Made by a program: the position numbers and the translations under genes
Shown here: in pieces, positions 1 through 31,428 of the stretch
How the letters are laid out: the number at the start of each line of letters is the position of its first letter
How positions within the stretch are numbered: the first letter of the stretch is position 1
Source: Candidatus Parcubacteria bacterium
GTDB taxonomy: Bacteria; Patescibacteriota; Minisyncoccia; Phycocordibacterales; Zambryskibacteraceae
Direction of reading: 5' to 3'
NCBI GenBank assembly: GCA_019661865.1
Contig: JAIFWJ010000004.1
Coordinates: forward strand, 1 to 57,665
DNA length: 57,665 bases
The notes under the pieces: model-generated
The model's database searches: none
What the model saw: the letters and a program-made list of their open reading frames with translations, nothing else
Told to the model about the DNA's origin: nothing

Positions 1-870
1 GTATTCGATACCGTCACCGTCACATTGGTTGCAGTGGTGGTATTTCCTGCAGCATCACGAGCTATAGCAGTGATGACGTGAGAACCGTTAGTGGCGGTCG
101 TTGTGTCCCAGTTAATACCGTAAGCTGCAGTTTGATCTTCGGAACCGAAGTTAACACCGTCTAGTCTAAACTGCACTCCCGCTACTCCTACGTTATCCGA
201 GGCATTAGCTGTGATGTTAATTGAACCACTAACTGTGGAGAGGTTGGTAGGAGAAGTGATAGAGACTGTGGGTGAAGTAGTGTCTGGAGTGGAGTTAGAG
301 ACTGTAACTGTGACCGATGTTGAAGTGGTGGTGTTGCCTGAGGTATCTCTAGCTGTAGCAGTTAAAGTGTGAGTACCGTTAGTAAGAGAGTTAGTGATAA
401 GAGAGATACCGTATGCTGCTGTAGTGTCTTCCACTCCTTGAGTAATGTTATCTACTTTAAAGGTTACTCCTGCGATACCTGCGTTATCCGAGGCTGAAGC
501 GGTGAAGTTAATAGTGCCAGAGACAGTACCACCTGTAGGGGAAGTGATAGAGACCGTTGGAGGTGTAGTGTCTGTTACTACATTAGAGATAGTTACAGTT
601 ATTGATGAAGTATTTACATTATTAGAAGAGTCTCTAGCTGTAGCTGAGAGAGTGTGAGTACCGTTAGAGTAGCCTGTGGTATCTAGACTTACTCCGTAAG
701 TAGGAACAGTATCTTCTGAATCTATAGTGGCACTGTCTAATTTAAAGGTTACTCCGGCTACAGAGACATTATCCGAGGCTGAAGCTGTAATATTGATTAT
801 TCCACTTATTGTTCCTCCTGTAGGTGAAAGGAAAGAGACTGTGGGAAGAGTGGTATCTGTTACAGGTGGT
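1..870 (-). repeat. Three tandem ~286-290-nt coding repeats (Ig-like domain units)
   Basis: Related plus-strand blocks beginning ttatccgaggc... recur near 193, 484 and 770, each followed by ...gatagagac(t/c)gt(g/t)gg.... The translated units are clearly homologous. Confidence 0.75.
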
Positions 871-1109
871 GTACTTCCACCCCCTCCACCTCCGCCTCCG
901 CCACCACCTCCTCCACCAGAGTTACCTGGAGGAGTAATAGAGACTCCACGACCTTGAAGGATGGCAATGATCTGTCTTTGAAGCTCAGCTATGAGAGCCT
1001 TCAGGATAACAATGATCTGGTTGGTTAACTGTTGGACTAGAACTTGCTTATCTGCTTCTGAGAGAGCTGCGGATTGATTAGTGTTTGATGGAGAAATGTG
1101 GAAACCTAA
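1..1109 (-). CDS. Ig-like-repeat surface protein, partial (continues beyond position 1); start codon unresolved
   Basis: Own translation of the minus strand, with codons in register with 1104-1106. It reads ..SEADKQVLVQQLTNQIIVILKALIAELQRQIIAILQGRGVSITPPGNS-G(14)-STPPVTDTTLPTVSFLSPTGGTISGIINITASASDNVSVAGVTFKLD..GTHTLSATARDSSNNVNTSSITVTISN. Two more ~95-aa copies follow with the pattern PTVSITSP..G.IN.TA.ASDN.G.AGV.F..D...GTH.LTA.ARD..GN.T.S..VTVTVSN. The frame is open from the TAA at 1110-1112 to the window edge. It is absent from the ORF track because it has no stop inside the window. Confidence 0.75.
876..917 (-). repeat. (GGN)14 tract encoding a 14-residue poly-glycine linker
   Basis: The plus strand reads tccaccccctccacctccgcctccgccaccacctcctccacc. 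In the minus coding frame this is 14 consecutive Gly codons. Confidence 0.9.
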
Positions 1110-1456
1110 TTATTTACATCATTTATAGATAGAGTTCCAACCGCAATGATCCTCTTTTCACTTGGCCTATATAGTATAGCCTGAGCAGTACCAGAGTAGA
1201 ATATGAGTTTATCCCCAACTCTTGAGTCACTAAACAATGAACCCCTAAGCTCTCTAGGATCTACCACGGTTGCTATTGTGGGACTTTCGTCTTCAGGTAA
1301 CAAAATAGTCTTCCCTACCTCACTCAAGATCCCTGAGACGTCTGTGTCAGGAGAAGATTTAAAGAAAAACCTTCCCCCGATAATAGAAAGCCCCCACCCG
1401 AAAAAAACAACAACGAGTAGTATGAGAGCAGATTTTTTCATCAAGGAGTAATTCAT
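1106..1456 (-). CDS. Small N-terminally membrane-anchored protein, unknown function
   Basis: ORF track, 116 aa. It has a hydrophobic N-terminus ALILLVVVFFGWGLSIIGG. Its start is separated by 1 nt from the end of the 1458..7778 gene (co-transcription likely). The stop is TAG at 1106-1108. No family was recognised. Confidence 0.6.
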   Translation of the reverse strand: MNYSLMKKSALILLVVVFFGWGLSIIGGRFFFKSSPDTDVSGILSEVGKTILLPEDESPTIATVVDPRELRGSLFSDSRVGDKLIFYSGTAQAILYRPSEKRIIAVGTLSINDVNN

Positions 1457-1457
1457 A

Positions 1458-4400
1458 TCAGTTTAGAGGAGTTGAAGTAGAGGTAGTGCTTGCGGTCGCG
1501 TCTATTATTGGAGTTGAGGATCCTTCTTCAGTAATCTGTTGAGAAGAATTATCTAATATTGGAGTAGTGGAAGAATTATCTACTGGTGGAGTAATAGTTA
1601 CTTGTCCCCCACTTGTTAGATCTGTAACTGTACTTAATATGGGCTGAGTGGTACTTGCTGAAGTTGCCGTCTTCATATTCTTAATAGCTAGAGCAATCCA
1701 GGAGAACGTTACTTGCTTCTCGGCAGGCTTGTTTAATATTATCGAGAAGCCATTTGTATTCCTATTAGTTACCGCATAGGTATTAGCTTCTGTAATAATT
1801 GCGTCTCTATCCGTATCAGTAGTACTTGCATCGAGTGTGATGGTTGCAGATATTACTGGTGCATTGACGTATGGCTTGTCGAAGGTAACATCAACCTTCC
1901 TTGATCCAGTTTCTATAACTGCAAGACCTCCTGTATCAGAGTTGAAGTAAGGACGACCGACGAATTCTGCATCTGATTCAAGGAGTAAGAGATCTGTTGG
2001 AGAACTGAGACTGTCGATCTTCAATCCACCTTGTACTAGACTGAAGTTTGCCAACGCTTCTGTGGTAGAAGCAGTTAGAGTATCGATTTTATTATTTAGC
2101 TCTTGTATTGCGCCGGCTAGAATTGGAGCGAAGTTGTCATAAAGAACTCCTCTCGGAGTAACTCCATCTTCATCATAGAAGACCAGTCTAGGATCTATCT
2201 GATTTATTTCTTCTGCGATAAAACCAGTCTTTTCGTCAGTATAACCATTGTATACGAATGAGACTGGACGGAACTTCATAACCTCATCCAAGTTAGCGGT
2301 GAGTGTATTTATATCATGCTTGAAACGCAGTGAGGATGTACCGCAAGTAGCACCCGTAGTTACTTCATTATTAGTAGAGAGACAGAGTTGAACATCACTG
2401 GCTCCTGTGGCAGTAAGGCCCTTAAGTGATGCTGTACCAGATACTGAGAAAGTCTTCCAAGGTGATGTCGTCCCCACTCCTAGAGAACCATTCGTGTCCA
2501 CAGTAAGCGCTGAGGCCGAGGAAGTGGCGTAAGTTGAGGCTGATGAAGTAGCTATGTATAGATTGCCTCCTGCATTCCTAAATGACCAATGAGTATCTGC
2601 AGCAATACCATCAGAGAGAGTAAGTTGAGCTCTAGTCGATGAAGCCACCTGAAGAGACCACTTGGGTGTGGTAGTGCCTATACCCACTTGTCCACCAGAT
2701 GTAATAACCATCTTGGAAGAGCTACTGATCTGGAAGTCTGCAATGTAGTTCGTACTTGTGGCAGATACGGAGGTCTGGACTGGGTTCACTCTTAAGGCAG
2801 TGTAGCCTCTAGAGAAGGTATTGACATTAATGGTAGGGTTAACGTCTAGACCAGTAATTGGATATAAAGAGTTTGTATAAAGATCGTTAGAACCTGAACC
2901 AATAGTGGTACTGATACCTAATGCTGTAAGTCTAGAGAGAGAAGACCATGTAGTTAAGGCACCAGCTCCGGTAGACATCGATCCTTCCACTCTTAAGACA
3001 GCGGCCCGAGTGTTAATGGCAGTTGCGGTAGGAGCATAAGCTGGAGCTATACTCAAGTAGTTATTAGTGTAGTCTCCTGACGTAAACCAGTTACCATTTA
3101 CATCAGTGAAATTAAAGTTGTTGTTATCTGAACCTAAGTCGACGCTACGATCATATGTAAATGTACCATTATTTTGAATTACAAATCCCTTATCATTATT
3201 TCTATCGGTGAGGATAAGATGAGTAGCGGCACCACTACTGCCAGCAGTTACAGTAAATCTATTAACTCCTTGAGTTTGGAAGTTAAATAAGTCCCCTGAG
3301 AATCCGTTATCCGAGAGATTCGAACCAATCAAGGTGCCCGCGCTGTTACCGCTAGTAAGAGGGTTAGGACCAAGAGATAGTATGGGGTTCGCAGTTGAGA
3401 AACCAGTACTGGTTGCGATTGAAAGACGAGATTTAGGAGTAGAAGTACCAATGCCTATGTTCCCAGAAGATCCGTCTACTGTTAATGATGTATATGTCGA
3501 TGTAGCAAATGTAGATGGAGATGAAGTAGCAATATATAAATTACCTCCAGCATTTCTAAAGGACCAGTGGTTCGAGGTAAGAGAATTATCCGAGAGAGTG
3601 AGCTGGGCCTTGGTAGATGAGGCTACCTGAAGAGTCCATTGAGGAGTAGATGTGCCAATACCAATCTTTCCGGGAGAAGTAGTAGTTCCCGAGCCCGATA
3701 TACCGCTACCGAAAATGATATTGCCTATGTTTAAGGTATTGGACGCGGTAGAAGTAGGTGCATCTATGTCATAACCTAAGACAATGTTATTTGAACCGGT
3801 TGTTAGATTATCCCCCGCCTGAAGACCCAGGAGAATGTTATTAGCTCCAGAAGTAAGTCCGAACCCTGATCTATATCCAAGAGCAGTGTTACCACTTGCA
3901 CCAGTGATGATGCTAGCAAGTGATTCTGTGCCGACAGCGGTAAGTTGTTGAGCACTGTATGACGCTCCTCCAGAAGCCGCACTGAAACCTATGGCCGTAG
4001 TAGAAGTTGCTGAGCCGTTATTAAAGTTTGCTTGATAGCCCACAGAAACGTTACTCGTGCCTGTAGTGTTGGCAAACATTGAGTTGTAACCGAGGGAGGT
4101 ATTATTACCACCTGTAGTGGTGTTGTACATGGACTGAGATCCAACTCCAGTATTATTGGCCGCAGAACCATTGGCTTGTCCTGATGCATAGCCCACAAAT
4201 GTATTATTGTCTGATGTCGTAACAAGCGTACCAGCCTGATAACCTAAGAAGGTATTAAATGATCCATCGAATGCATTAACATTCCCTGCTAAAAGACCTA
4301 GGATAGTTGTAGAGTTGGTGGATGATGCATCGAGAATCCTTAGCCCACCTTGATAAAGCGACTTATCAGATGCGAAGTTTACATTACCACTTACATCAAG

Positions 4401-7400
4401 TTTAAATGTGGCCGAGGCCAAACCAATACCGACATTACCACTCGAGTTTACTGTTAGAGCATTGAATCCAATCTTCATTGTAGAACCGAAGAGATTCGTA
4501 GAAGATGCAGTAGTTGAGAATATATTTGTGGTTGTAGCATTGGTAGTAGTTGAACGGATAGAATTCAGGTTATCAATTGTATTCTCTCCTGTGAAATGGT
4601 TATTATCTCCTAGAAGTGTGGAGGAAGCTGATCCACTACCACTTACCACTCCACATGTCACCTTTCCCCCTGAGATATTTAGAGCATTAGTTCCACTGCA
4701 TGGTCCTACTGCTATATATAGGTTTGAAGTTGAAGCTGTAGTAGAGAAGAGGTTAGTGGTAGTGGCATTGGTAGTGGTGGAGTTACCAGTAACGATGAGG
4801 TCATTCCCTAGAGTAACTACCCCTGTAGAGTTTATGGTCAGTGCCGCCACGGTCGAAGTTGCAAATGTTGAAGGTGATGAGGTTGCCAAGTAGAAGTTAC
4901 CTCCAGCATTTCTAAAGGACCAGTGGTTCGAAGTGAGAGAGCCGTCAGAAAGTGTCAGCTGTGCTTTGGTGGATGATGCAACTTGTAGAGCCCATTGGGA
5001 TGTGGAAGTACCTATGCCCACGTTTCCACCGGTCGACACAGCAAATTTGGAGACGTTGCTCGAATCATACAGTTCGAAAAGGTTTGTTGGAGCTGCAAGA
5101 TTAGAATACCCAAGTTGCCCACTTGCTGAAATCTGAACTTTATCAGCCAGGAAGAGCAATCGACTGATACTGGTGGCGTTCGCCGCGCTAAATATCACAT
5201 TGTCGTTTGTATCTCCAACCTGGAAGAATCTCGAGTCCACACTATCTACCCAGGCACTTGAACGAATGCCACGAAATACGACATTTGAAGTACTATCTAG
5301 AAGTCTTAACTGGTTTCCAGTCGTAATGAGATCCGTTCCGCTTAGCTGGATACTGCCTCCCACAGTTAGTTTCTGAGAAGAAGGAGAACCACCCACTCCT
5401 ACATTGCCAGAAGAGTTCACTACTAAGGCGTTATTACCCACAGTCAATAATGAGGAGAAGAGGTTTGTTGACGAAGCAGTAGTAGCAAAGAAATTAGTTG
5501 TAGTAGCGTTAGTTGAAGTTGATTGTAGAGCAGTGAAGTTCTGGAGTGTTGATGAACCTGAGAGGAGTAAGTTTGATAATGAGGTCAATCCACCAGTAGC
5601 TGTAAGAGTTCCAGTGAAGTTAGCTGCTGCAGATATTGTCTGGCCGTTTATGAGACCAGTAGTGAGTATTGTGGAGAAAAGATTGGTACTTGATGAAGTT
5701 GTTGAGAATATTGTTGTCGTAGTTGCGTTCGTAGTTGTGTTATTCTGTCCTGTAAAGCTTAGAAGTGTAGATGAACCACTTAGGAGAAGATTAGAGAGAG
5801 AAGTGAGCCCACTAGTTACAGTTAATGTACCAGTGAAGTTAGCAGCAGATGAAATAGTTTGGCTGTTTATAAGACCTGAGGTGATTAACCCAGTAGTAAG
5901 TGCTGTTGAGAAGAGATTGGTAGAGCTTGAGATGGTTGAGAAGTGGGTAGTAGAGGTAGCGTTAGTAGTGGTGTTGTTAAGACCGGTGAAGTTTTGGAGA
6001 GTGCTGGAGCCAGTAACCAATAGATCTCCAGCTATCTTTCCGAAACTAGTATTAGGGTCAAAGTAGAACTTAGCAGATGTGGTGGCTGAAGATCCAATTA
6101 CAACGACATCCGAGCTGTTATTTGGATAATTTATAAACTCTCCCACAACTTGGGATGTTGTGGTGGACCATGTCCCAGCAGCACTTCCTCCTCCCCCTCC
6201 TCCAGCCACAGTATGACAGCCAAAGACACCCCCACTCCATATAAGGGACTCACTCGCACCATTACACATACTTAGACCGAAGCCGTTTACAGTACCTCCA
6301 TATAAAGTAGTAGTAAATAAACTTGTAGAAGATGCAGTAGTAGCAAACAAATTCGTAGTTGTAGCACTAGTACCAGTAGCATTCACGAATGTGAAGTTCT
6401 GAAGAGTAGAAGATCCTGAGAGGAGTAAGTTCGACAAAGATGTAAGTCCACTAGTCACCGTGAGAGTGCCTGTAAAGTTAGCTACTGAGGAGATATTTTG
6501 ACCATTTACAAGCCCAGACGCGACAGCACCAGTTGTAAGTAAGGTTGAGAATAGGTTTGTACTCGAGGAGGTAGTGCTGAAGAAATTTGTCGTTGTTGCA
6601 GCACTTCCTGTAGCATTTATAAACGTGAAATTTTGGAGCGTGGTGGAACTAAGACTTAATATGTTTGAGAAAGTGCCAAGGCCAGTAGAAGTTAGAGAGC
6701 CTCCACTTGCGGCTGTGAAGAATACGTTGGTGGAAGAAGCAGTTGTTGAGAATATATTTGTACTAGTAGCTGAAGTAGTGGTAGAAGTGCCTATATTTAA
6801 TGCAGTAATAGTAGACGAAGAGAAAACCATTATTCCTCCTCCACCATTAGGTGTTATATCTGAGTTAGTAGATGTGGCCCATTTAGAGTTACCTCCACTT
6901 CCTGAACCACCAGTGGGCCAAGTAGTTCTACAGACATCGCCAGTGAGACACAATGTAGTAAATGTGCCCGAGGTCGAGAAGAGCTTGGTCGAGGTGGCCT
7001 GAGACGAAGTGGAATTTATAGAGGTGAAGTTCTGAAGTGTAGATGAACCAGAAAGTAATAGATTAGAGAGTGAGGTAAGACCACCAGTTGCTGTAAGAGT
7101 TCCTGTGAAGTTAGCTGCAGCAGATATTGTCTGGCCATTTACTGTGCCACTGGTAAGGGTTCCACTTAAAGTTACATTACCAGAGCTATCTACTAATAGA
7201 GCCGAGGAACCGTTCCTTTGAACATCGAGGACGTTCCCCGCACCCGTCTGATTAATAGTAAGTATTGTCTCAGCACTGTTAGTACTAATAGTAGAAGTAG
7301 CATCCGTTCTAGCGAACTGCCTTGAATCAAGCCCGTCTAAGGTGTCAGACACTATGGCTGCCGGCACTGCACCTATTATTTTCCTTGGAGTCATCTCTCC

Positions 7401-7778
7401 ATCCCATGTAGGTACTCCAGCAGTACCTCCTATCTCAACTCCAAGATAAAGTGTTTGGTTGAAGTCTAGGCTTGTGAGAGGTGTAGTGGAACCGAGCATC
7501 ACAGAGAAGAGACCGCTTGCTACTGGTACTCTATTTGATCCTGTAAGCGTCTCAGTCCACAGACTTGATCCTCCACTCGAAGTTGTGTAGAGATTAAATC
7601 TCATATTATAAGTACCATCAGCTACAGCTACGTTCGAGTTATCTACAAGACGTCCTTGGTAATTTATTTCTGGGTTAAATGATGCATTGAATGCGGCCTG
7701 TGTAGAAATAGGCAATCCGCCAACTACTAAGGTGGTGAGAATAAGGATTACTGTGAATTTGGCGAATAACTTTTTCAT
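1458..7778 (-). CDS. Giant (2106 aa) secreted S/T/N-rich fibre protein with a phage-tail-fibre-like architecture and an internal Peptidase_S74-type intramolecular chaperone domain
   Basis: ORF track. Signal peptide MKKLFAKFTVILILTTLVVGGLPISTQA. The N-terminal module INYQGRLVD..GTYNMRFNLYTT..LWTETL..GLFSVMLG is typical of tail-fibre-like bacterial proteins. Two internal repeat families are present. SSLRFKHDI..GFIAEEINQIDPRLV matches the S-x-x-R-x-K / GFIAQE signature of S74 autoprocessing chaperone domains (recognised from memory, not searched). Confidence 0.9.
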   Translation of the reverse strand: MKKLFAKFTVILILTTLVVGGLPISTQAAFNASFNPEINYQGRLVDNSNVAVADGTYNMRFNLYTTSSGGSSLWTETLTGSNRVPVASGLFSVMLGSTTPLTSLDFNQTLYLGVEIGGTAGVPTWDGEMTPRKIIGAVPAAIVSDTLDGLDSRQFARTDATSTISTNSAETILTINQTGAGNVLDVQRNGSSALLVDSSGNVTLSGTLTSGTVNGQTISAAANFTGTLTATGGLTSLSNLLLSGSSTLQNFTSINSTSSQATSTKLFSTSGTFTTLCLTGDVCRTTWPTGGSGSGGNSKWATSTNSDITPNGGGGIMVFSSSTITALNIGTSTTTSATSTNIFSTTASSTNVFFTAASGGSLTSTGLGTFSNILSLSSTTLQNFTFINATGSAATTTNFFSTTSSSTNLFSTLLTTGAVASGLVNGQNISSVANFTGTLTVTSGLTSLSNLLLSGSSTLQNFTFVNATGTSATTTNLFATTASSTSLFTTTLYGGTVNGFGLSMCNGASESLIWSGGVFGCHTVAGGGGGGSAAGTWSTTTSQVVGEFINYPNNSSDVVVIGSSATTSAKFYFDPNTSFGKIAGDLLVTGSSTLQNFTGLNNTTTNATSTTHFSTISSSTNLFSTALTTGLITSGLINSQTISSAANFTGTLTVTSGLTSLSNLLLSGSSTLLSFTGQNNTTTNATTTTIFSTTSSSTNLFSTILTTGLINGQTISAAANFTGTLTATGGLTSLSNLLLSGSSTLQNFTALQSTSTNATTTNFFATTASSTNLFSSLLTVGNNALVVNSSGNVGVGGSPSSQKLTVGGSIQLSGTDLITTGNQLRLLDSTSNVVFRGIRSSAWVDSVDSRFFQVGDTNDNVIFSAANATSISRLLFLADKVQISASGQLGYSNLAAPTNLFELYDSSNVSKFAVSTGGNVGIGTSTSQWALQVASSTKAQLTLSDGSLTSNHWSFRNAGGNFYLATSSPSTFATSTVAALTINSTGVVTLGNDLIVTGNSTTTNATTTNLFSTTASTSNLYIAVGPCSGTNALNISGGKVTCGVVSGSGSASSTLLGDNNHFTGENTIDNLNSIRSTTTNATTTNIFSTTASSTNLFGSTMKIGFNALTVNSSGNVGIGLASATFKLDVSGNVNFASDKSLYQGGLRILDASSTNSTTILGLLAGNVNAFDGSFNTFLGYQAGTLVTTSDNNTFVGYASGQANGSAANNTGVGSQSMYNTTTGGNNTSLGYNSMFANTTGTSNVSVGYQANFNNGSATSTTAIGFSAASGGASYSAQQLTAVGTESLASIITGASGNTALGYRSGFGLTSGANNILLGLQAGDNLTTGSNNIVLGYDIDAPTSTASNTLNIGNIIFGSGISGSGTTTSPGKIGIGTSTPQWTLQVASSTKAQLTLSDNSLTSNHWSFRNAGGNLYIATSSPSTFATSTYTSLTVDGSSGNIGIGTSTPKSRLSIATSTGFSTANPILSLGPNPLTSGNSAGTLIGSNLSDNGFSGDLFNFQTQGVNRFTVTAGSSGAATHLILTDRNNDKGFVIQNNGTFTYDRSVDLGSDNNNFNFTDVNGNWFTSGDYTNNYLSIAPAYAPTATAINTRAAVLRVEGSMSTGAGALTTWSSLSRLTALGISTTIGSGSNDLYTNSLYPITGLDVNPTINVNTFSRGYTALRVNPVQTSVSATSTNYIADFQISSSSKMVITSGGQVGIGTTTPKWSLQVASSTRAQLTLSDGIAADTHWSFRNAGGNLYIATSSASTYATSSASALTVDTNGSLGVGTTSPWKTFSVSGTASLKGLTATGASDVQLCLSTNNEVTTGATCGTSSLRFKHDINTLTANLDEVMKFRPVSFVYNGYTDEKTGFIAEEINQIDPRLVFYDEDGVTPRGVLYDNFAPILAGAIQELNNKIDTLTASTTEALANFSLVQGGLKIDSLSSPTDLLLLESDAEFVGRPYFNSDTGGLAVIETGSRKVDVTFDKPYVNAPVISATITLDASTTDTDRDAIITEANTYAVTNRNTNGFSIILNKPAEKQVTFSWIALAIKNMKTATSASTTQPILSTVTDLTSGGQVTITPPVDNSSTTPILDNSSQQITEEGSSTPIIDATASTTSTSTPLN
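2067..2336 (-). other. Peptidase_S74-like intramolecular chaperone / autoproteolysis domain segment within the giant CDS
   Basis: Encodes SSLRFKHDINTLTANLDEVMKFRPVSFVYNGYTDEKTGFIAEEINQIDPRLVFYDEDGVTPRGVLYDNFAPILAGAIQELNNKIDTL. The first Ser codon is at 2334-2336 (plus strand gga). The domain lies 292 residues from the C-terminus, not at the terminus. Confidence 0.6.
2566..5030 (-). repeat. Intragenic repeat family B: three dispersed ~130-nt copies encoding GIGT.TP.W.LQVASST.AQLTLSD....HWSFRNAGGN.Y.ATSS
   Basis: Copies at about 2566-2700, 3543-3670 and 4899-5030. A 33-nt identical block, acctccagcatttctaaaggaccagtggttcga, occurs at 3543-3575 and 4899-4931. Confidence 0.8.
5533..7139 (-). repeat. 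Intragenic repeat family A: ~115-nt cores encoding NGQTIS.AANFTGTLT.T.GLTSLSNLLLSGSSTLQNFT
   Basis: Four near-complete copies on the plus strand at about 5533-5648, 5752-5867, 6391-6506 and 7024-7139. Each starts gt(g/a)aag(t/c)t and ends ..tagc(t/a)gc(t/a)gcaga(t/a)at(t/a)gt.tgg.c. Partial copies lie near 5985 and 6627. Confidence 0.8.
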
Positions 7779-9457
7779 GTTGTTACTGGAACGGGCTGAA
7801 TCTCTTGAACCTTTCTTCTCTTAGATCTCCGTATGACGAGAATGATTATTAAGATACCTACGATTGGGAACCCCACATTCCTAGCAGTTGTCGTTGAGAC
7901 ACCGAAGAAACTTTGACCAACCTTTAGAGCTCCATTTATTTTCTTCATTCCTTGATTTTTATAATCAAGTACAGTGATACTTACCTTATAGTTCTGAGTT
8001 ACGAGAGGCGAGATAGTTGCTTCATATCTAGTCTTGTCTCTATTAACTCTTAATATGAAGCTGAAAGTTTCTGGATTATTACCTAAGGTAGTCAGGGTTA
8101 CAGCAATGGTTTTCAGTACTGGTGGTACTTTGTAATATTTGAGAGCTACAGTTATGTCTTCACTGGCATTCAGATGAATAGTGTCATCGATAACAGGTAG
8201 ACTATCTCCGTGTTGGATAAAAAGAAAGTCTTTAAGTTGAAGAGCAGCTATAGCTGGGTCAACATTTGTGGCTAGGGGGACATTTTCAATTGGAGGTATC
8301 TCAGTAGGAACTTGGGTGGCTGGAACAATCTTCCCCGCCCCTACTACTCCTGAAGAGAAATTACCAGACTGATCTTTAGCGAAGATTGTATAGTAGTAAG
8401 TCACACCTTCTTCCACTTCCCTATCTACAAATTCTTGGGCATTACCTTCGAAGACAATTTCTCCTTCATCTGGTGAAGATCCATAAAAGCTTGTCGAGCG
8501 GACGATTCTCACTCCTATTGCATCAATTGGATTTTTCCATGTGAGATCTAGGGTCTTTTCTTTCTGGGTAACTTTAAAATTGGAGATGTTCGGTGGTGCT
8601 ACGGTTATGGGAAGACTCATGGTTCTAAAGGGTATTTGTTCCATGATCGTCTGCTGACCGTTATCTCCTGTTACCAAGATCCTTAAGAGATAAGGGGTAT
8701 CAGACTTGAGATCTGTAATTAAGAACTGGTGTTGTGTTAAATTGAAATCTTCTCCAGTATTTCCATCTAGATAAGAACTATCAAGTCCCCAGGACAGAAT
8801 GGCTTTAGCCGGCAAAGAAGTACTGAATAAAACAATAGAAGAATTATTGGCTGGGATGACAGATAGACTCACTATCTGAGGAGTCCTCCTAGAACTTGAG
8901 GTGGTTACTGAGCCAGCTGCTAAGGTTCTACCTGTAGTTGTGGCCGACCATAGAGACTCATTGCCATCATCGTCTAAGGCTGAGACGTTGTATAAATAGT
9001 TTGTCTCTGCGGTCAAACCTCCAGAATCAACATAAGTAGTAGGAAATGCAGATGTATCTCCCACTAGAGTGCCATCTCTATATATGCGGTATCGAGCTAC
9101 TCCTAAGGAACCAGTGGAAGCTGTCCAATCAAGTTCTATTCTTTCTCTACTCTGACCAGTAGCAGTTAGACCAGTAGGTTGAGTCGGAGGAGTGGTAGTA
9201 CCAATATTTAGTCTCATTCCTTGATATCCAGCTTCAAAGAGTTTAAAGCTTGTACTGTGAGACCTTCCAGTAGCTACTTCCCCAGCTGTGTCTTCTAGAC
9301 TGTAAGTTGGAGAAGCAGATCTCACTCCAGCAACGTTTATGCTATCGCTCTCCATTTTGTATGTACCAGAGTTCATAACACTCTGAGCTAGTACCGAGTT
9401 GGTAAGTGTCATGCTCAACATGAGAGCGATTAATACTTTATAATTCTTTATTCTCAT
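7775..9457 (-). CDS. Secreted fibronectin-type-III-domain protein with a C-terminal membrane anchor
   Basis: Signal peptide MRIKNYKVLIALMLSMTLTNSVLAQS. FN3 modules are visible in PTGLTATGQSRERIELDWTAS..YRIYRDG..YLYNVSALDDDGNES and PPNISNFKVTQKEKTLDLTWKNP..YYYTIFAKDQSGNFS. The C-terminus is FPIVGILIIILVI followed by RRSKRRK. ATGA overlaps link it to both neighbours. Confidence 0.85.
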   Translation of the reverse strand: MRIKNYKVLIALMLSMTLTNSVLAQSVMNSGTYKMESDSINVAGVRSASPTYSLEDTAGEVATGRSHSTSFKLFEAGYQGMRLNIGTTTPPTQPTGLTATGQSRERIELDWTASTGSLGVARYRIYRDGTLVGDTSAFPTTYVDSGGLTAETNYLYNVSALDDDGNESLWSATTTGRTLAAGSVTTSSSRRTPQIVSLSVIPANNSSIVLFSTSLPAKAILSWGLDSSYLDGNTGEDFNLTQHQFLITDLKSDTPYLLRILVTGDNGQQTIMEQIPFRTMSLPITVAPPNISNFKVTQKEKTLDLTWKNPIDAIGVRIVRSTSFYGSSPDEGEIVFEGNAQEFVDREVEEGVTYYYTIFAKDQSGNFSSGVVGAGKIVPATQVPTEIPPIENVPLATNVDPAIAALQLKDFLFIQHGDSLPVIDDTIHLNASEDITVALKYYKVPPVLKTIAVTLTTLGNNPETFSFILRVNRDKTRYEATISPLVTQNYKVSITVLDYKNQGMKKINGALKVGQSFFGVSTTTARNVGFPIVGILIIILVIRRSKRRKVQEIQPVPVTT

Positions 9458-10287
9458 TTTTGCTTACTACTTATCGGCACCATTACGAATACATAATTCT
9501 TTGTCTCTTCACCAGGACGGAAGATAGGAGTCACAATTCCTGAACTTCCACTCTCGTCGAATGCCACATTTACCTGGTCAGAAAAAGCATTCTTAACTGT
9601 TTCAACAGATTGTTCGGACTGACTAGACTCTGGGAAGATAACTATCCCCTGTGAGTTAACTGCTGGGGTTGTAGCCACCGCAGGACTTTTCTTAAAAAGT
9701 AGGACCACGTTATTCCAGCCATTCTTTACAGTATCCACTACTGAGGCACTTACTGACTGGCTTTGGATTATTTTTGTGTTTAGTAAAACTGAATATCCAA
9801 TGCCGAGGATTAGGAGAACCATAATTACATTTGTGAGCACCCTATGGCGAACATTGTTTACTTTCTTACTATTAACAAGAAAAGCATCATGCTTTTTCAT
9901 TAAAATAGAGACCGGGTTCGGTTTCTTGTATTCATATTTAAATTTCGACTCAAAAACGTGTGATCTCGGCAAGTCGAGAACGAGAGATGTGGCACTGCTA
10001 TTCAAATTGCTACCATATGCATTTACTGAAGTGTCTGGTAACTTTTCGACAGTATTAGAAGTATTAGATTCATGAAGATCTTCTTTCTTTTTACTTTTTC
10101 CAGCCTTATTTATCTGATGATCTCGGAGAGCCGAGAAGTCTAGATACCATGTTCTTCCGACCATTCTAGCTGGAATTTTTTTACCTCGACACAATTGACT
10201 CAAGTAATCAGAAGCATAACCAGTTCTCTCACTAGCGCGGCCAACAGACGTGTACTGCTTTCCGTCTAGGAAAAGATCTTCATTCAT
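9454..10287 (-). CDS. Membrane-tethered protein with an N-terminal MerR/excisionase-type HTH and an extracytoplasmic C-terminal domain
   Basis: YTSVGRASERTGYASDYLSQLCRGKKIPARMVGRTWYLDFSAL resembles HTH_17/MerR-like DNA-binding motifs. There is a single TM helix, VLTNVIMVLLILGIGYSVLL, followed by about 100 aa. It is the first gene of the operon. Confidence 0.8.
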   Translation of the reverse strand: MNEDLFLDGKQYTSVGRASERTGYASDYLSQLCRGKKIPARMVGRTWYLDFSALRDHQINKAGKSKKKEDLHESNTSNTVEKLPDTSVNAYGSNLNSSATSLVLDLPRSHVFESKFKYEYKKPNPVSILMKKHDAFLVNSKKVNNVRHRVLTNVIMVLLILGIGYSVLLNTKIIQSQSVSASVVDTVKNGWNNVVLLFKKSPAVATTPAVNSQGIVIFPESSQSEQSVETVKNAFSDQVNVAFDESGSSGIVTPIFRPGEETKNYVFVMVPISSKQK

Positions 10288-10547
10288 TCATAAAATTATA
10301 AAAGTAGTAACTAATCAAAAACAGCCAAGAATATGGATTTTATGTGGATAGTTAAAAATCAATTTTCAAAGATATTTTGACTTAAATTTCATTTTTATTG
10401 AAAATGGCTACAAGGACTTAGGGCATTTCAACAGGCTGAAAGATGAGCTACCCAAGATATAGTTATTAACATCTGGAGACCTTGATAAAAAGGCTCAACT
10501 TTATATCATAGTGTAGTAAGGTTTATAATTCTTTCAGCCTTAAAACC

Positions 10548-10787
10548 ATGTCTAGAGAAATCTACTTCACTATCAAAGAGGCATCCGAAATCTTAGGAGT
10601 ATCTCCATTAACGCTTAGAAATTGGGATAAAAGCGGAAAGTTTCCTGCACAACGACACCCCATGAACAACTATCGTGTCTATAGGCTATCTCAGCTCGAA
10701 AGGGTTATTGAAGACATAGAAAGTAACACTACCAGAAGTAATGCTGAGAAACGCATCAAGAAACTTCTTATAAGACACGAGGAATAG
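10548..10787 (+). CDS. Small MerR/excisionase-family HTH DNA-binding protein
   Basis: 79 aa. YFTIKEASEILGVSPLTLRNWDKSGKFPAQRHPMNNYRVYRLSQLE is a classic MerR-type HTH-wing signature. It is divergent from the surface operon across a 260-bp AT-rich spacer. A TATAAT box lies at 10524-10529. Confidence 0.8.
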   Translation: MSREIYFTIKEASEILGVSPLTLRNWDKSGKFPAQRHPMNNYRVYRLSQLERVIEDIESNTTRSNAEKRIKKLLIRHEE

Positions 10788-17783: not shown

Positions 17784-19949
17784 TTAAATTTTACCTTGTT
17801 TGATTAACTGGATATACGAATCAATTTGATTTTTAGTATCTTTATCAGAAACTTTCTGTTCAACAGTCTGAAGAAGAGTTACCGCTTTAGACGTTTCTCC
17901 ATTTTTATAATATGCAATAGCGAGGTCGACGTAATTCTGGAGCACCGAAGGCGCATACTGAACTCTATTTTCTAATAAGATAACCAGATCTCCATATTTT
18001 TTATTTACATATAGCGCACTAGAGATACGACTATCCTCGACGAGCACATTTGGTGAGATCTCACCGATTAACTTCTGAGATACTTGGGTGTCACCGGTGT
18101 ATATGGCAGCAATTAAATATAGAATTTTAGCCTCGTTATAGTCTTTATCCAGCTCATAAGCCTGCTTGAAATACTCTTGGGCACCCCGGAAATCATTCTG
18201 GTTTAACTTCACTCCACCAAGTTCGAAGTAAACTTGTTGCTTGCCAGGAGTTAGCTTCCGAGCAGTCTCAAGATAAGCATTCGCCAACTCAGGAGAACCA
18301 GTTTTAGAGAAGAATGAGCCTGCGATGAGTTGATATCTAGCATCTTCAGATAATTCTTTGGCCAGAGTCTCGACTGCCTGCTTAGCGAAAGTGAAATAGT
18401 CATTCTTCTCTTGGATAGTAAGAGGACTAGAACTAAGTACACTGTCAGCACTTGTGGCTATCCACTCTACGACCTCTGGTCTACCTAGTCGGGAAGAATT
18501 GTATGCGTTCTCGAAATCTGTAACAACTGCTCCATAGTTTCCATCAGAAGCAGAGTGGAGTGCTTTTATTAGGCTTGTGTTAGCAATTATTGGTTTGATG
18601 TTTATAAAATAGATTACGAGTAGTGTCACAACCACAGCCGGTACGCCAATGATATATATCTTGGTAGTATCAACTGTGGTTACCTTAGGAGATGTCTCCT
18701 GTGGCGTTATCTGAGAATGTACGTACGCTAGCAAAGAAGTAAACAATATGTAACTTATAAGGTGATCGAAGACAAAGAAATTATGGAAAAAGTAGGCAGC
18801 AATGAGCCCAGTTAAAACTGATTTTTCAACATGAGTAATCAGAGGATCTCTCTTCCATATATATATTAGTAATATTACATATAAAGAAAGATAACCAAGT
18901 AAACCTAGGATCCCTCCGGCTATACCCCAATCTAAGAATATATTATGAGCTCTGTCGAACCACGGTTCGAATCTAAACATTTCTGGGTCATAATATTTAT
19001 TGAAGACATAATTAAAGTTCTCTTGTCCCCACCCGAGAAGCGGCCTATCTTTAATACCCTTTAGGGCTATAGGCCAGACGAAGGCCCTGCCCTCACCTTT
19101 AATACTTGAGATAGAGATAGTGGCAAATCTGTCTAATATAGAATTATTCTTTACAAAGCTTGTATTCCTAACTAGGAAAAATCCTCCGACGATAAATACG
19201 ATACCCGCTAACACTCCTATGCTGGCTTTTCTTAACCAAGGGATTTCTCGATTCTTCAGGTTTAGTAGTGCAATTAAGAACAGACCTCCAAGAGTTCCAA
19301 GTATTGCTCCTCTTGTGGCTGATTCATAAATCATATAGGCCTGGAGCACCATAAGAGACCCATAAACCCACCTCATACCCCCTTTCGACTTCAAAAGGTA
19401 ATACAGAGCAATGAAGAAATGGAAGAGCATGTATACGGCCAGGTAAGCTGCATTTCCCAACGATCCATCCACTCTTGCTCCTCCTTGGTGAATCTCGGCC
19501 TTACCACTTAACTGAAAGAAACAATAAAAAACCATGAGAAGTGATGCAGCAAGAGATGTGTTCCACCACCACTTCCACTCTCTTTCTTTAAAGAAAGTGG
19601 AAACAACTAAGAAGAAAGCTCCTAGATGTAAGAGTGATACAAACCCTTCCATACGTTCGAAGTTAGACCAGAAACTTTTAACTGGTGCCACTCCAAAGGC
19701 ATCCGCCAGTCCAATAATAAAAATAAAAATAAATAAAGAATAAAGCAGGAGAGATTTCCTCGGTCTGTATTCAGGTGAAATAATGATAAAAACAATCCAA
19801 GCAGCAAATATTACTTCTACTATAATCCTCCAAGTAAAAGCCTTGGTAGTGATAAATGGAAAGAATAAGGAACTGTTAACAAAGAAAGGTACGAAAGGAA
19901 CAATGAAGAGACCGGTAAAAATTAGGCCCTTAAGAATTTTCTTGAGCAT
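17784..19949 (-). CDS. O-antigen ligase/polymerase-like (Wzy_C-type) polytopic membrane protein with a C-terminal TPR domain
   Basis: The N-terminal ~450 aa has about 12 TM helices, with DGSLGNAAYLAVYML resembling the O-antigen-ligase loop. C-terminal TPR-like repeats include AYLETARKL..QVYFELGGVKLNQNDFRGAQEYFKQAYELDKDYNEA. Confidence 0.8.
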   Translation of the reverse strand: MLKKILKGLIFTGLFIVPFVPFFVNSSLFFPFITTKAFTWRIIVEVIFAAWIVFIIISPEYRPRKSLLLYSLFIFIFIIGLADAFGVAPVKSFWSNFERMEGFVSLLHLGAFFLVVSTFFKEREWKWWWNTSLAASLLMVFYCFFQLSGKAEIHQGGARVDGSLGNAAYLAVYMLFHFFIALYYLLKSKGGMRWVYGSLMVLQAYMIYESATRGAILGTLGGLFLIALLNLKNREIPWLRKASIGVLAGIVFIVGGFFLVRNTSFVKNNSILDRFATISISSIKGEGRAFVWPIALKGIKDRPLLGWGQENFNYVFNKYYDPEMFRFEPWFDRAHNIFLDWGIAGGILGLLGYLSLYVILLIYIWKRDPLITHVEKSVLTGLIAAYFFHNFFVFDHLISYILFTSLLAYVHSQITPQETSPKVTTVDTTKIYIIGVPAVVVTLLVIYFINIKPIIANTSLIKALHSASDGNYGAVVTDFENAYNSSRLGRPEVVEWIATSADSVLSSSPLTIQEKNDYFTFAKQAVETLAKELSEDARYQLIAGSFFSKTGSPELANAYLETARKLTPGKQQVYFELGGVKLNQNDFRGAQEYFKQAYELDKDYNEAKILYLIAAIYTGDTQVSQKLIGEISPNVLVEDSRISSALYVNKKYGDLVILLENRVQYAPSVLQNYVDLAIAYYKNGETSKAVTLLQTVEQKVSDKDTKNQIDSYIQLIKQGKI

Positions 19950-20001
19950 CTAATTATTTTAGCATGTAGCTCAAGCGACAGGAATTGTATAATATAGATG
20001 C

Positions 20002-21267
20002 GTGAAGAGTCTCAGAAATAAGGTTTACCAGCTACTACGCCGAAGTGAGGCGTTTTTTAAGACCGATATGGTCTACCTGGCCAAGGGTGGCTTCTGGCTT
20101 ATCTTCGTGCAACTTATTGGAGCAGTATCTGCATTCGCTCTATCTGTCGCATTCGCTCACCTTTTCCCTAAGGATTCTTATGGTACATATAAGTATGTCA
20201 TAGCACTATCTGGGATTATAGGCACTCTCACCCTTATCGGACTTGGTCCAGCAATTACCCAGTCTGTGGCTAGAGGATTTGACGGTGCATTGTTTAGAGG
20301 ATTCAAAACTGTCTTGAAATGGGGGGTGATCATACTGACCCTCTCTCTTTCTTTGTCTATTTACTATCTTGTCCACCATAACTACGTACTTGCGTTCTCT
20401 CTATTTATAATTGGCATCACCTCACCACTCATAGATGCATCATCTTTCTTCAACTCTTATCTTAATGGCAAGAAAGACTTCAAAACATTATCAATCTTGA
20501 GTTCAATAGGTAGTATCTTCCCTGCTCTGTGCTTGATCCTTACTCTATTCATTACCGAGAATCTTTTTGTAATTATATTTGTTTATTTTATTTCTTATAC
20601 AACCATCCTTTATACTTCTTATCGAATAACAGTCTCGAAATATCATCCTCATGGAGAAGAAGATCCAGAAATGATCCCCTACGCGAAACATCTTACTTTT
20701 ATCTCTATACTGAATACCCTGGCAGATCAGGCAGATAAAATTATCGTTTACCACTACGTTGGAGCAGTAGAGCTGGCGGTCTACTCATTCGCCATAGCAG
20801 TGCCTCTACAGATTAAAGGAATGTTTAAAAGTTTCTTTCCACTTGCTTTACCAAAGTTTGCCATCCGTTCTCTCGAGGAGATAAAAAGCGATGTGCCTAA
20901 TAAAACTATAAAATTTCTATTCGTTCTTGTGCCTGTGGTAATCCTATACATAGTTGTGGCCCCATTTATATATAAGACCTTCTTTCCACAATATATGGAT
21001 GCGGTAAGAATGTCTCAGATATTCTCTCTTTCCCTCCTTGCTTATATAAGTATTATTCCAACAACTATTCTGCAGGCTAAAAAGACTTTAAACAGCCTCT
21101 ACGGTAGCAACATGAGTATCGCAGTTGCTAAACTGGCTCTGTTATTTATTGGTGTAAAGATGTTTGGTCTATGGGGAGTAATATATGCTCGCATTGCTTA
21201 TGAGTTTGTAGCGCTACTTATTGCAATTTTCTTTTTGAAAAGAGCTCGAGAAACTACTTTGATATAA
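20002..21267 (+). CDS. Polysaccharide/oligosaccharide flippase (MOP/Wzx-like)
   Basis: 421 aa with about 12 TM helices. Its position and topology are typical of Wzx. GTG start with a TATAAT box at 19988-19993. Confidence 0.75.
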   Translation: MKSLRNKVYQLLRRSEAFFKTDMVYLAKGGFWLIFVQLIGAVSAFALSVAFAHLFPKDSYGTYKYVIALSGIIGTLTLIGLGPAITQSVARGFDGALFRGFKTVLKWGVIILTLSLSLSIYYLVHHNYVLAFSLFIIGITSPLIDASSFFNSYLNGKKDFKTLSILSSIGSIFPALCLILTLFITENLFVIIFVYFISYTTILYTSYRITVSKYHPHGEEDPEMIPYAKHLTFISILNTLADQADKIIVYHYVGAVELAVYSFAIAVPLQIKGMFKSFFPLALPKFAIRSLEEIKSDVPNKTIKFLFVLVPVVILYIVVAPFIYKTFFPQYMDAVRMSQIFSLSLLAYISIIPTTILQAKKTLNSLYGSNMSIAVAKLALLFIGVKMFGLWGVIYARIAYEFVALLIAIFFLKRARETTLI

Positions 21268-21979
21268 AGACCACGAACCCTGCTGCAAACCAAGAAGGAA
21301 TGAGTTCGTTGAGAAATGGTACTCCCTTATAATACTTAATCTTATATTTTTTAAATCCCAAGCTTTGAAGCCACCAAAGTAGATCTCGCTTGGTCCAAAA
21401 TCGTACATGTTCACTCGGAGAGAGCTTCCATTGCATTGGTACTCTTCCGAATAAGAGTCTCAGTCTATGGGGGAAAAATCCAGTATTAGGAAAGGAGAAA
21501 AAGACTCCTCTCTCTGACTTCTCATAAGCTTTTAATAACAACTCTTCAGAATGAGGAATATGTTCAAGTATCTCGAAAAGGAGAATATAATCGGCGACTG
21601 GAATCTTAGTTAATTGTTTCGTGTCACCAATATCTAGTTTAATTGTCTCAACTCCGAACTTCTCAGCCTGCTCTAGGGCAAACTCAGATATATCTGTACC
21701 TACGAGCTTAACCCCGGGGAACTGTTTGGATATATAATGCAAGATAGATCCATCTCCACAAGCGATGTCACATATTGAGCCAACAGACCGCTCCTTGAGT
21801 TCGTTTATGACGAAGCTGGCTCTCTCAATCTGCCAATCTGAAATAGCACCAATGTTAGATCCACGCTTGGACTTCCAATACTCATCATAATCAACGTTGG
21901 AAAGTGTAAGTGGTGGGTAAACAAACATAATTTTCCACCATTCTTTAAGATTATAAAGAATTTTACGAACTTGTTGCAT
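21254..21979 (-). CDS. Class I SAM-dependent methyltransferase
   Basis: Motif I ICDIACGDGSIL, plus the LFEILEHIP post-II region. Confidence 0.8.
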   Translation of the reverse strand: MQQVRKILYNLKEWWKIMFVYPPLTLSNVDYDEYWKSKRGSNIGAISDWQIERASFVINELKERSVGSICDIACGDGSILHYISKQFPGVKLVGTDISEFALEQAEKFGVETIKLDIGDTKQLTKIPVADYILLFEILEHIPHSEELLLKAYEKSERGVFFSFPNTGFFPHRLRLLFGRVPMQWKLSPSEHVRFWTKRDLLWWLQSLGFKKYKIKYYKGVPFLNELIPSWFAAGFVVFISK

Positions 21980-24391: not shown

Positions 24392-24430
24392 TCCACCAAT
24401 GATATACTCTAGGAATTAACTTAGCAAAAC

Positions 24431-29775: not shown

Positions 29776-29789
29776 GTATGGGCGATTCT

Positions 29790-29827
29790 AGCAAAAGAAT
29801 AGACCCCTCGCTAGAGACGAGGGGTCT
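29790..29827 (-). terminator. Rho-independent terminator (minus strand)
   Basis: A perfect 10-bp stem, agacccctcg / cgaggggtct (29801-29810 / 29818-29827), followed on the minus RNA by AUUCUUUUGC. Confidence 0.6.
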
Positions 29828-29831
29828 GATA

Positions 29832-30377: not shown

Positions 30378-30388
30378 TTTACTCTATT

Positions 30389-30417: not shown

Positions 30418-30419
30418 AG

Positions 30420-31317: not shown

Positions 31318-31392
31318 GTCTCACACTCCCATGTTTTAAACTCTGTCTTTCTTAAGACAATCAACAAATGCCTTTGAAGTCAAGCTACTCTA

Positions 31393-31421: not shown

Positions 31422-31428
31422 ACGCTCG

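Follow-up and report, generated by a model that had tools for sequence, protein, structure and literature searches.

Organization of the fibre locus

The window analysed here is an entire contig of 57,665 bp (JAIFWJ010000004.1, assembly GCA_019661865.1) from a Candidatus Parcubacteria bacterium of the family Zambryskibacteraceae. At one end of this window lies a group of genes, here called g0 to g5, in which g3 encodes a giant protein with the predicted features of a trimeric adhesive fibre, g1 and g2 encode membrane proteins that are candidates for holding such a fibre at the cell, and g0 encodes a regulator. A previous sequence-only reading of this DNA had proposed a five-gene surface operon consisting of g1 to g5. 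According to the open reading frame (ORF) calls, these five frames are indeed co-directional on the minus strand, and the coordinates of their junctions agree: g1 and g2 overlap by 4 nucleotides (nt) at 9454-9457, g2 and g3 overlap by 4 nt at 7775-7778, both with the sequence ATGA, and g3 and g4 are separated by 1 nt at 1457. The limits of the unit have to be redrawn. Judged by its occurrence in related genomes, the conserved core unit is g0-g1-g2-g3; g0 had been missed by the sequence-only reading, and g4 and g5 are found only sporadically.

Within the core unit, g0 (10548-10787, plus strand) encodes a 79-amino acid (aa) regulator of the MerR/HTH_17 type, identified from Pfam matches and relatives, and is divergent from g1 (9454-10287, minus strand), which encodes a bitopic membrane protein of 277 aa. 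The control region between them (10288-10547) contains boxes that were recognized from the sequence and an alignment of eight loci. The type I membrane protein encoded by g2 (7775-9457, minus strand) has 560 aa, and g3 (1458-7778, minus strand) encodes a protein of 2106 aa that is predicted to be the precursor of a trimeric fibre resembling the mosaic adhesive trimers (MATs) described below.

The fibre protein g3

The protein g3 starts with a signal-like segment (residues 1-28, from hydropathy) with an inferred cleavage site between TQA and AF. This is followed by a β-rich N-domain (residues 31-161, 131 profile positions, nt 7296-7688), for which a single-chain prediction reaches predicted local distance difference test (pLDDT) values above 90 over residues 35-135. 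Foldseek searches with this domain revealed no significant neighbour in the PDB (best E 0.012) and only weak immunoglobulin (Ig)-like matches among viral models. The sequence-only reading had assigned a signal peptide, Ser/Thr-richness, and an S74 domain to g3, all of which stand, and had further described its N-terminus as tail-fibre-type; the latter description was dropped because neither a phage match nor a PDB fold relative was found for this part of the protein. The N-domain family is very large: 34,028 clusters match at E ≤ 1e-3, of which 13,818 do so at E ≤ 1e-10, with proteins of up to ~5000 aa; the best 150 of these matches, which were listed, are all close relatives. At least 425 homologs of g3 were found, nearly all of them in Parcubacteria. 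The full-length relatives are almost all encoded in metagenome-assembled genomes (MAGs) of Parcubacteria/Paceibacteria, have 1200-3600 aa, and often contain an S74 domain.

The N-domain is followed by a mosaic, Ser/Thr-rich shaft (residues 162-1814), and the whole protein consists of 16.6% Thr and 14.7% Ser. The region from residue 246 to 743 contains six 'STLQNFT' modules, a second type of module, 'HWSFRNAGG', is present three times (at 952, 1404, and 1730), and a stretch from ~1150 to 1370 is rich in Asn and Gly; four close-set Cys pairs are also present in g3. The capping-loop motif xVGIGTxxPxxxL occurs five times (at 919, 1115, 1371, 1440, and 1697) compared to a mean of 0.002 in shuffled sequences, and variants of it are found at 791 and ~1775. 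Individual modules recur in another build, as the database protein P0006 contains g3 modules with 81-97% identity within a different overall architecture, which indicates module shuffling. Across relatives, the N-domain is 50-73% identical, whereas shaft and tip are highly variable and the protein length ranges from 1200 to more than 5000 aa.

The S74 chaperone/protease domain of g3 comprises residues 1815-1905 (nt 2064-2336). A hidden Markov model search confirmed its earlier assignment: residues 1815-1866 match Peptidase_S74 (PF13884) with 31.9 bits at a cut-off of 22. This is the sole Pfam family in g3 at E ≤ 0.01. The residues Ser1815 (codon 2334-2336) and Lys1820 (codon 2319-2321) within the motif SSLRFK form the S-x4-K pair expected for the catalytic site; both are invariant in 21 aligned homologs and align with the respective residues in the motifs SDERLK and SDRRIK of solved fibres. 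When the C-terminus of g3 was used as a single query, a sequence search of the PDB gave nothing, and the family profile alone gave matches. With a profile of the S74 region built from 21 homologs, these were 8jov (E 7e-12), 6f45 (3e-10), the L-shaped fibre of phage T5 (8hqz, 1.3e-8), and, with lower significance, the eukaryotic protein MYRF (7dc3, 8e-5). The S74 domain of g3 is followed by an extra C-terminal domain (residues 1921-2060, nt 1599-2018), which is also found in other giant fibre proteins, and by a Ser/Thr-rich tail. Most g3 homologs extend for 110-440 residues beyond S74.

The membrane proteins g2 and g1

The protein g2 has been described by the sequence-only reading as a secreted FN3 protein with a C-terminal anchor, which is well supported by the Pfam match to fn3 (PF00041, E 2.5e-10) and by a transmembrane (TM) helix at residues 522-546 (nt 7820-7894; from hydropathy). 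A signal peptide (residues 1-24) is followed by a segment with SxxYxL repeats (residues 25-87, nt 9197-9385) and by four FN3/Ig-like β-sandwiches (residues 95-514, nt 7916-9175); a basic tail follows the TM helix. The segment 25-87 weakly resembles PamT, the proposed tip protein of a recently described pilus. Residues 8-73 of g2 match the NCBIfam model CPR_pilus_PamT (NF058579) with E 1.7e-7 and 30.9 bits, compared to a cut-off of 240. In an alignment of 21 orthologs, residues 25-87 are the most conserved part of g2, and they appear disordered in the AlphaFold2 (AF2) monomer model, where residues 18-87 have a pLDDT of ~30 compared to 73.5 for the whole protein. Foldseek searches with the g2 model retrieved generic FN3 tandems only and no match specific for RbmA or pili. 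About 45 full-length orthologs of g2 are available. The model is consistent with a role as stalk plus dock.

The protein g1 consists of a predicted cytoplasmic winged helix-turn-helix (HTH)-like domain (residues 9-56, nt 10120-10263), a TM helix (residues 149-175, nt 9763-9843; from hydropathy), and a conserved ectodomain of ~100 aa, termed g1C (residues 176-277, nt 9457-9762). Orthologs of g1 are encoded in 26 loci. In Pfam and other family scans, neither g1 nor g4 had a family match at E ≤ 0.01, and g1 alone scored 14.2 bits against HTH_17 (E 0.054; cut-off 27), which is below the threshold. The N-domain profile of 23 g1 orthologs, which contains seven invariant residues, aligned with the HTH core of the g0 family over 34 columns (hhalign, 81% probability, E 1.2e-5) and matched one small solved protein in the PDB, AM32, with E 7.7e-4. 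The earlier description of g1 as an HTH-TM protein thus holds for the TM helix, and the HTH assignment is moderately supported by the profile-profile match. Together with g2, g1 most likely serves as a membrane anchor or dock for the fibre.

The regulator g0 and the g0/g1 control region

Matches of g0 to the Pfam families MerR (PF00376; E 6.4e-12, 45.5 bits at a threshold of 28.2), MerR_1 (PF13411; E 1.8e-9, 38.0 bits at a threshold of 21.6), and HTH_17 (E 3.8e-9) identify it as a MerR-type protein. With 79 aa, the part that usually forms the effector-binding/coiled-coil region of MerR proteins is short and leaves no room for a normal effector domain. The position and orientation of g0 are kept in 25 related loci, and no other gene of the locus is as well conserved, with up to 81% identity between species.

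In an alignment of the control regions of eight loci, a TATAAT box (10295-10300, minus strand) is invariant. Its end is located 7 nt before the ATG of g1, which suggests a leaderless g1 mRNA. About 42 nt upstream of the TATAAT box, the alignment revealed an invariant T.TCC.CA box, the window copy of which is TATCCACAT, and a conserved TAAACATTAATAA adjoins the start of g0. A search of the window for TRTCCMCAG gave a single match within g3, which is at chance level and does not support a regulon. Generic scans of the window for promoters and terminators gave no excess over shuffled expectation and were not used as evidence for an operon.

Conservation of gene order and gene fusions

The alignment of 21 g2 orthologs was used to scan one genome per GTDB species, and the gene content of the resulting 35 loci was read by tblastn with all genes of the window. 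In 27 of these 35 loci, g2 is directly followed by a g3 N-domain. Of these 27 loci, 23 have enough upstream flank, and all 23 show the arrangement obg - gatB - g0 (opposite strand) - g1 - (0 to 2.7 kb) - g2 - g3. Protein look-ups revealed three additional loci, two of which have the same order (L003 and L004), and one of which encodes a fused fibre at the same position (L002). Compared to the window, identities are 49-81% for g0, 50-73% for the g3 N-domain, 36-46% for g2, 34-60% for the g1 N-domain, and 28-54% for the g1 ectodomain. Most of the contigs end within the giant gene, presumably because its repeats break assemblies. The sequence-only reading had suggested a dedicated surface apparatus of co-conserved genes outside prophages. 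In the related loci, the block is not embedded in prophages and g0, g1, g2, and g3 are co-conserved, with fusions among g1, g2, and g3; co-conservation does not extend to g4 and g5.

Many of the loci (among L005-L038) are titled 'uncultured Candidatus Saccharibacteria bacterium' (third-party annotation, TPA) in spite of a synteny of the Paceibacteria type. This label looks generic and is not regarded as evidence for the presence of the locus in Saccharimonadia.

Two kinds of fusions were found. In 10 of the 27 loci with adjacent g2 and g3, both form one uninterrupted frame, and single-frame proteins of this kind are also present in the database (P0145, P0038, P0082, P0052, P0065, P0113, P0033, and P0031). 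These fusions retain the TM helix of g2, a short basic loop, and the signal peptide of g3, followed by the N-domain. Being encoded in a single frame, both parts would be made as one chain at one translocon, and they may then be separated by signal peptidase. In the second kind, the N-terminal module of g1, consisting of the HTH-like domain and the TM helix, heads at least nine giant S74 fibres (e.g. P0008). Such fused fibres are encoded in L002 (Zambryskibacteria) and L040 at the same place as in the window, with secA...obg-gatB-g0 upstream. In L040 (8001-23359), two tandem giant S74 fibres of 2452 and more than 3688 aa follow gatB-g0 at this position, each beginning with its own g1-type HTH-like/TM module. 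Neither L002 nor L040 encodes g2, the g1 ectodomain, or the g3 N-domain, and the g1 ectodomain is found only in g1 orthologs of loci that also encode g2 and the g3 N-domain. Since the loci with fused fibres have dropped the separate parts, the simplest reading is that covalent anchoring by fusion and non-covalent anchoring by g1C and/or g2 together with the g3 N-domain are interchangeable. A further arrangement is found in L025 (Kaiserbacteria), where the gene for an S74 giant adjoins a g2-type gene, but both the order of the genes and their neighbourhood are different.

Resemblance of g3 to mosaic adhesive trimers

MAT fibres have been described from Bdellovibrio bacteriovorus (Caulton et al. 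2024, PMC10769870). Their signal peptide is immediately followed by a conserved β-rich domain of ~130 aa without a PDB homolog. In addition, they have a trimeric shaft, which contains a capping-loop motif of the NVGIGTTxPxxKL type that is also present in MYRF (motif list in the supplement), and an S74 domain (SDxxxK) or another adhesive tip (PMC10769870). The combination of a conserved N-domain with a variable, shuffled tip was argued to be a receptor-binding pattern, and the cell-surface partner of the MAT N-domain was stated to be unknown (PMC10769870). In terms of description, all of these elements have a counterpart in g3: a signal peptide followed by a β-rich N-domain of ~130 aa without a PDB homolog, a shaft with capping loops, an S74 domain with Ser-x4-Lys, and shuffled modules. 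In addition, both are found in a cellular, non-viral context, and Bdellovibrio also lives on other cells. A profile of the g3 N-terminus matched the structure of the Bdellovibrio protein Bd2133 (8ond) weakly (E 0.0017). In contrast to MATs, g3 is about twice as long as is typical and has ~200 residues with an extra conserved domain beyond S74. Furthermore, it belongs to a monoderm member of the candidate phyla radiation (CPR), and its gene is located in a conserved operon with genes for two membrane proteins and a regulator, with which it is often fused. From these sequence features, g3 appears to fit MAT fibres best, over a freshly domesticated phage fibre. The earlier remark that the combination was not recognized as a described system is only partly true: g3 matches the description of MATs (PMC10769870), and for the partnership with g0, g1, and g2, as for the locus itself, no paper was found in the literature. 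No link between S74 or MATs and the CPR was found in the literature beyond a one-line remark in the preprint on Pam pili (10.64898/2026.03.03.709456).

Some g3 homologs are named trimeric autotransporter adhesins in JGI records. Like YadA and other members of this family, g3 is predicted to form a long trimeric adhesive fibre, and its Asn/Gly-rich segments at ~1150-1370 resemble β-rolls. Unlike these proteins, it has no C-terminal β-barrel translocator/anchor and belongs to an organism without an outer membrane; trimerization would be mediated by S74 and the anchor would be at the N-terminal end. An identity as a trimeric autotransporter was rejected, as the Pfam search found no YadA-type anchor in g3.

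Proposed mechanism of fibre assembly and alternative explanations

The features described above are probably, if not securely, explained by a vertically inherited chromosomal locus of Paceibacteria that builds a long trimeric adhesive fibre fixed to the cytoplasmic membrane. According to this proposal, g3 would be exported by the Sec system, and three chains would be zipped together starting at the S74 end. By analogy to solved fibres, S74 would then cleave itself between Thr1814 and Ser1815 and free a C-terminal piece of 292 aa consisting of the chaperone domain, the conserved domain 1921-2060, and the Ser/Thr tail. The mature fibre would have ~1786 aa per chain and would be held by docking of the N-domain on the g1 ectodomain and/or the N-terminal segment of g2, with the four FN3-like domains of g2 forming a stalk that spans the wall. 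Shaft and tip, which are variable and module-shuffled, would bind structures on the surface of host or partner cells, and the MerR-type protein g0 would regulate the divergent promoter. A role in host attachment is plausible by analogy, based on the pattern of a conserved base with a variable tip and on the precedent of Bdellovibrio.

Several points weigh against this proposal. Expression, cleavage, trimerization, surface display, and binding of g3 are predictions from the sequence, and docking of g3 on g1 or g2 is deduced from synteny and fusions. The g2-g3 fusions keep an internal signal peptide and may thus reflect co-production and not contact. The likeness between the N-domains of g3 and Bdellovibrio MATs is one of description, and S74 is followed by ~200 residues, including a conserved domain, which sets g3 apart from phage fibres as well as from typical MATs. 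Evidence for an HTH in g1 is weak, and a passive anchor would not need a cytoplasmic DNA-binding fold. Finally, L031 encodes g1-like and g2-type proteins with no giant gene within 10 kb.

Paceibacteria (Parcubacteria) are the largest class of the CPR and almost entirely uncultured. We know of no account of how they find and hold partner cells; work on attachment in the CPR has so far been concerned mainly with type IV pili and, very recently, with Pam pili in Saccharimonadia. The locus described here provides a candidate attachment device with a giant, variable, and predicted self-processing fibre, encoded at a fixed position of the core genome in at least 27 species-level genomes. Gene order and fusions nominate g1 and g2 as its membrane partners, which bears on the question of the partner of the MAT N-domain. 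Fibre genes break most assemblies and are therefore under-represented in surveys based on MAGs; the genes g0-g1-g2 together with the fibre N-domain are good markers for finding them.

One alternative explanation is a reduced pilus of the Pam type, assembled by donor-strand exchange, in which g2 would be a PamR-like terminator or anchor that contains a PamT-like element, and the giant fibre would be an accessory or tip of the pilus and not itself anchored directly. Pam is a pilus of CPR bacteria with PamT as the proposed tip protein; PamR contains two FnIII domains together with a C-terminal TM helix and a donor strand at the N-terminus, and a protein termed 'tail fibre-like' co-localizes with CPR pam operons (Troman et al. 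2026 preprint, 10.64898/2026.03.03.709456). Both Pam and the locus in the window are CPR-specific surface apparatuses, and g2 resembles PamR in its FnIII domains, its C-terminal TM helix, and its N-terminal strand. The weak match to the PamT model is shared by the N-terminal segment of g2 and by proteins of 252-255 aa encoded in sister loci. In 16 sister loci, a cassette of three extra genes is located between g1 and a g2-type gene that lacks the PamT-like segment. These genes encode a secreted protein of 225 aa, a protein of 321 aa with two β domains, a C-terminal TM helix, and a weak match to WxLIP_PGBD (E 1.7e-4), and a PamT-like protein of 252-255 aa (E 1.9e-10 and 4e-8; 40.6 and 32.9 bits compared to a cut-off of 240). 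The latter starts with an N-terminal segment of the g2 type and is a paralog of the 225-aa protein. In L025, the cassette is located downstream of the S74 giant.

In the window, genes of this cassette are absent, as a tblastn search with the sister-cassette proteins matched only the N-terminal segment of g2, and genes for pilins (PamA/B/E) and membrane-anchored PapD-like chaperones (PamC/D) were not found there either. Because of the lack of pilin-like and chaperone-like genes, no polymer is expected from this locus, and because of the lack of cassette genes, a Pam-type pilus is a rival explanation for the family and not for the product of the window. Furthermore, the scores for PamT are only 31-41 bits, with matches that partly cover the signal peptide; no protein scored reached the cut-off of the PamT/PamR-type families, and other Pam components gave no match. 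The ATP synthase neighbourhood of pam genes is also missing from the window, and its main product is a predicted trimeric S74 fibre instead of a donor-strand polymer. Pam pilins have been reported mainly from Saccharimonadia and Microgenomatia, which are other CPR classes, and not from Paceibacteria. A reduced Pam-type pilus is thus regarded as unlikely.

The cassette is an observation in its own right. Together with the g2-type FN3 anchor, it forms a four-gene cassette in L015 (8304-12291) and L004 (11103-14480), which is also present in L010-L013, L022, L025, L029-L033, L038, and L039 and is widespread in Paceibacteria. It may represent a Pam-like or WxL/Csc-like surface assembly system that would be new for Paceibacteria.

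Another explanation with a comparably low probability is that the fibre is part of an S-layer-like envelope coat, a matrix, or a biofilm and has no role in host recognition. The conserved position in the core genome beside a large glycan/glycosylation cluster would suit such a function, the Ser/Thr-rich shaft could be glycosylated, and FN3 stalks are common in wall-associated proteins. Against this function, the contrast between an N-domain with 50-73% identity and a variable, shuffled shaft and tip is a hallmark of fibres that bind receptors, a point that has been made for MATs. In addition, trimers matured by S74 are typically adhesins or depolymerases.

The HTH-like domain of g1 raises the possibility of transmembrane signalling, in which g1 would be a membrane-tethered transcription factor with a ToxR/CadC-like or MYRF-like logic, and the fibre would be the sensor and not primarily an adhesin. 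Eukaryotic myelin regulatory factor (MYRF) contains a DNA-binding domain, a TM helix, and an S74 domain for trimerization and self-cleavage, and the fused forms such as P0008 likewise combine an HTH-like domain, a TM helix, and S74 in one protein. The alignment of the g1 N-domain with the MerR HTH core, with seven invariant residues in 23 sequences, the constant location of this domain on the cytoplasmic side of a TM helix linked or fused to a fibre, the conserved boxes in the g0/g1 control region, and the match to MYRF (PDB 7dc3), in which S74 drives the release of a transcription factor, all agree with such a function. However, the order and topology differ from MYRF: the HTH-like domain is N-terminal and cytoplasmic and S74 is located far outside the cell, and in the window both parts belong to separate proteins. 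Since the cleavage would be extracellular and distal, it cannot free the HTH domain, and no partner of the site-2-protease type was seen in the locus. DNA binding by g1 is putative, its match to HTH_17 is below the Pfam threshold, and g2 would be left unexplained. Signalling as the primary function is therefore improbable.

An equally doubtful proposal combines elements of several systems into a hybrid apparatus that had not been recognized before. In this case, strand complementation of the pilus type would join a phage-like S74 trimeric fibre to the membrane, and g1 would link the base of the fibre to DNA by its HTH-like domain. Each chain of the trimeric g3 N-domain would receive one strand from the conserved and intrinsically unfolded N-terminal segment of g2, which has up to three SxxYxL motifs; alternatively, the g1 ectodomain would take part in this as well. 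The DNA reached by g1 could be either the nucleoid or the conserved boxes in the promoter of g1 itself. If this were true, host contact would be signalled to the genome or coordinated with it, and the same way of anchoring could explain how MATs are held on Bdellovibrio and other predators.

Phage similarity of g3

A tblastn search of the whole g3 sequence against 50,697 phage genomes matched 39 records with 23-37% identity. All of these matches are located within residues ~1103-1336 or 1682-1915, and the similarity to phages amounts to ~11% of g3. The S74 domain together with ~230 aa preceding it matches phage proteins that are annotated as tail fibres or tail spikes (phrog_4636, E 2.6e-7), and the FN3 region of g2 matches the phage tail families phrog_1696 and phrog_31, the latter matches being generic. 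As in the tail fibres and tailspikes of phages (K1F endosialidase, T5 pb1), the S74 domain of g3 has the catalytic Ser and Lys and follows a collar-type module. The use of S74 by cellular proteins such as MATs and MYRF speaks against a capture from phages. In contrast to phage fibres, g3 has a Sec signal and a proposed cell-anchoring domain at the N-terminus instead of a baseplate-attachment domain, and S74 is not at the extreme C-terminus. Furthermore, neither g2 nor the g3 N-domain had a relative in three scans of IMG/VR, comprising 2.9 million viral contigs. Among the neighbours of the block, there are no genes for virions, lysis, or integration (capsid, terminase, tail-tube, and integrase); the neighbours are housekeeping genes, and the block has the same position next to obg-gatB in all 23 informative species loci. 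On these grounds, it is very improbable that g3 is the receptor-binding protein of a recently domesticated or decaying prophage module with incidental neighbours.

A prophage origin of the block was rejected for the lack of phage neighbours, the fixed obg-gatB position, and the negative scans of viral contigs. The conclusion of the sequence-only reading that the block is not a prophage is thus corroborated; its wording of a domesticated phage fibre, in turn, overstates a link to phages that, as far as sequence comparison goes, extends to the S74 end with ~230 aa and one weak stretch.

The genes g4 and g5

The gene g4 (1106-1456, minus strand) encodes a protein of 116 aa with an N-terminal TM helix or signal anchor, as predicted from hydropathy, and an ectodomain of ~80 aa, in line with its earlier description as a small anchored protein. 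Homologs of g4 follow giant genes only in four other loci (L001, L003, L012, and L034), and g4 is probably an optional accessory gene found after some fibre genes.

The frame g5 (1-1109, minus strand) is incomplete, and its place in the unit is doubtful. It encodes a helical segment, a run of 16 Gly residues (Gly16), and three Big_7 Ig-like domains (Pfam E 1.5e-42), by which the Ig repeats noted before are confirmed. The frame opens right after the stop codon of g4, in another frame, with TTA as first codon and an ATT at 1097. A codon scan showed that ATG, GTG, and TTG are absent from the first 225 codons, and a signal peptide was not found. As the window is the whole contig, g5 is truncated at the end of the assembled sequence. 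Its 16 consecutive glycine codons (~860-915) are a possible hotspot for assembly errors, and g5 may have either an unconventional start, damage, or a mis-assembly around the Gly16 run. Similar Ig proteins are encoded only near two loci, L001 and L034, in the latter on the opposite strand. Core membership of g4 and g5 was rejected because of the sporadic occurrence of homologs and the lack of a start codon in g5, and g5 is probably either unrelated or defective.

Genomic neighbourhood and contig ends

Upstream of the block, the window encodes gatB, obg, a MYG1-family gene, a thioredoxin, a DedA/VTT protein, and secA, followed by a large glycan-synthesis cluster. This surface-glycan/glycosylation cluster (17784-35257) encodes a Wzy_C protein of the O-antigen-ligase/O-OTase type with TPR repeats, a flippase, and several methyltransferases, as well as a SIS-CBS isomerase, a PMT_2 glycosyltransferase, RmlA/RmlB-like enzymes, and a GLF-like oxidoreductase. 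Two minus-strand ORFs of the cluster (21963-23432, 489 aa, and 26578-28413, 611 aa) had no Pfam match at the thresholds used. The arrangement of Wzy_C and secA is retained in L002 as well. In view of this cluster, the Ser/Thr-rich fibre may be O-glycosylated.

At the other end of the contig, the region 56240-57665 (minus strand) contains a gene for tRNA-Ile(GAT) and part of a 16S rRNA gene, of which the 3' 786 model positions are present. The contig thus ends inside an rRNA operon at one side and inside the repeat-rich Ig protein g5 at the other. The GC skew of the plus strand is positive only across the fibre block (1-10000 of the window) and negative over the remainder, and the change is flanked by minus-strand genes on both sides. 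This shift is most likely an effect of the codon composition of the Thr/Ser-rich genes and not a feature of replication.

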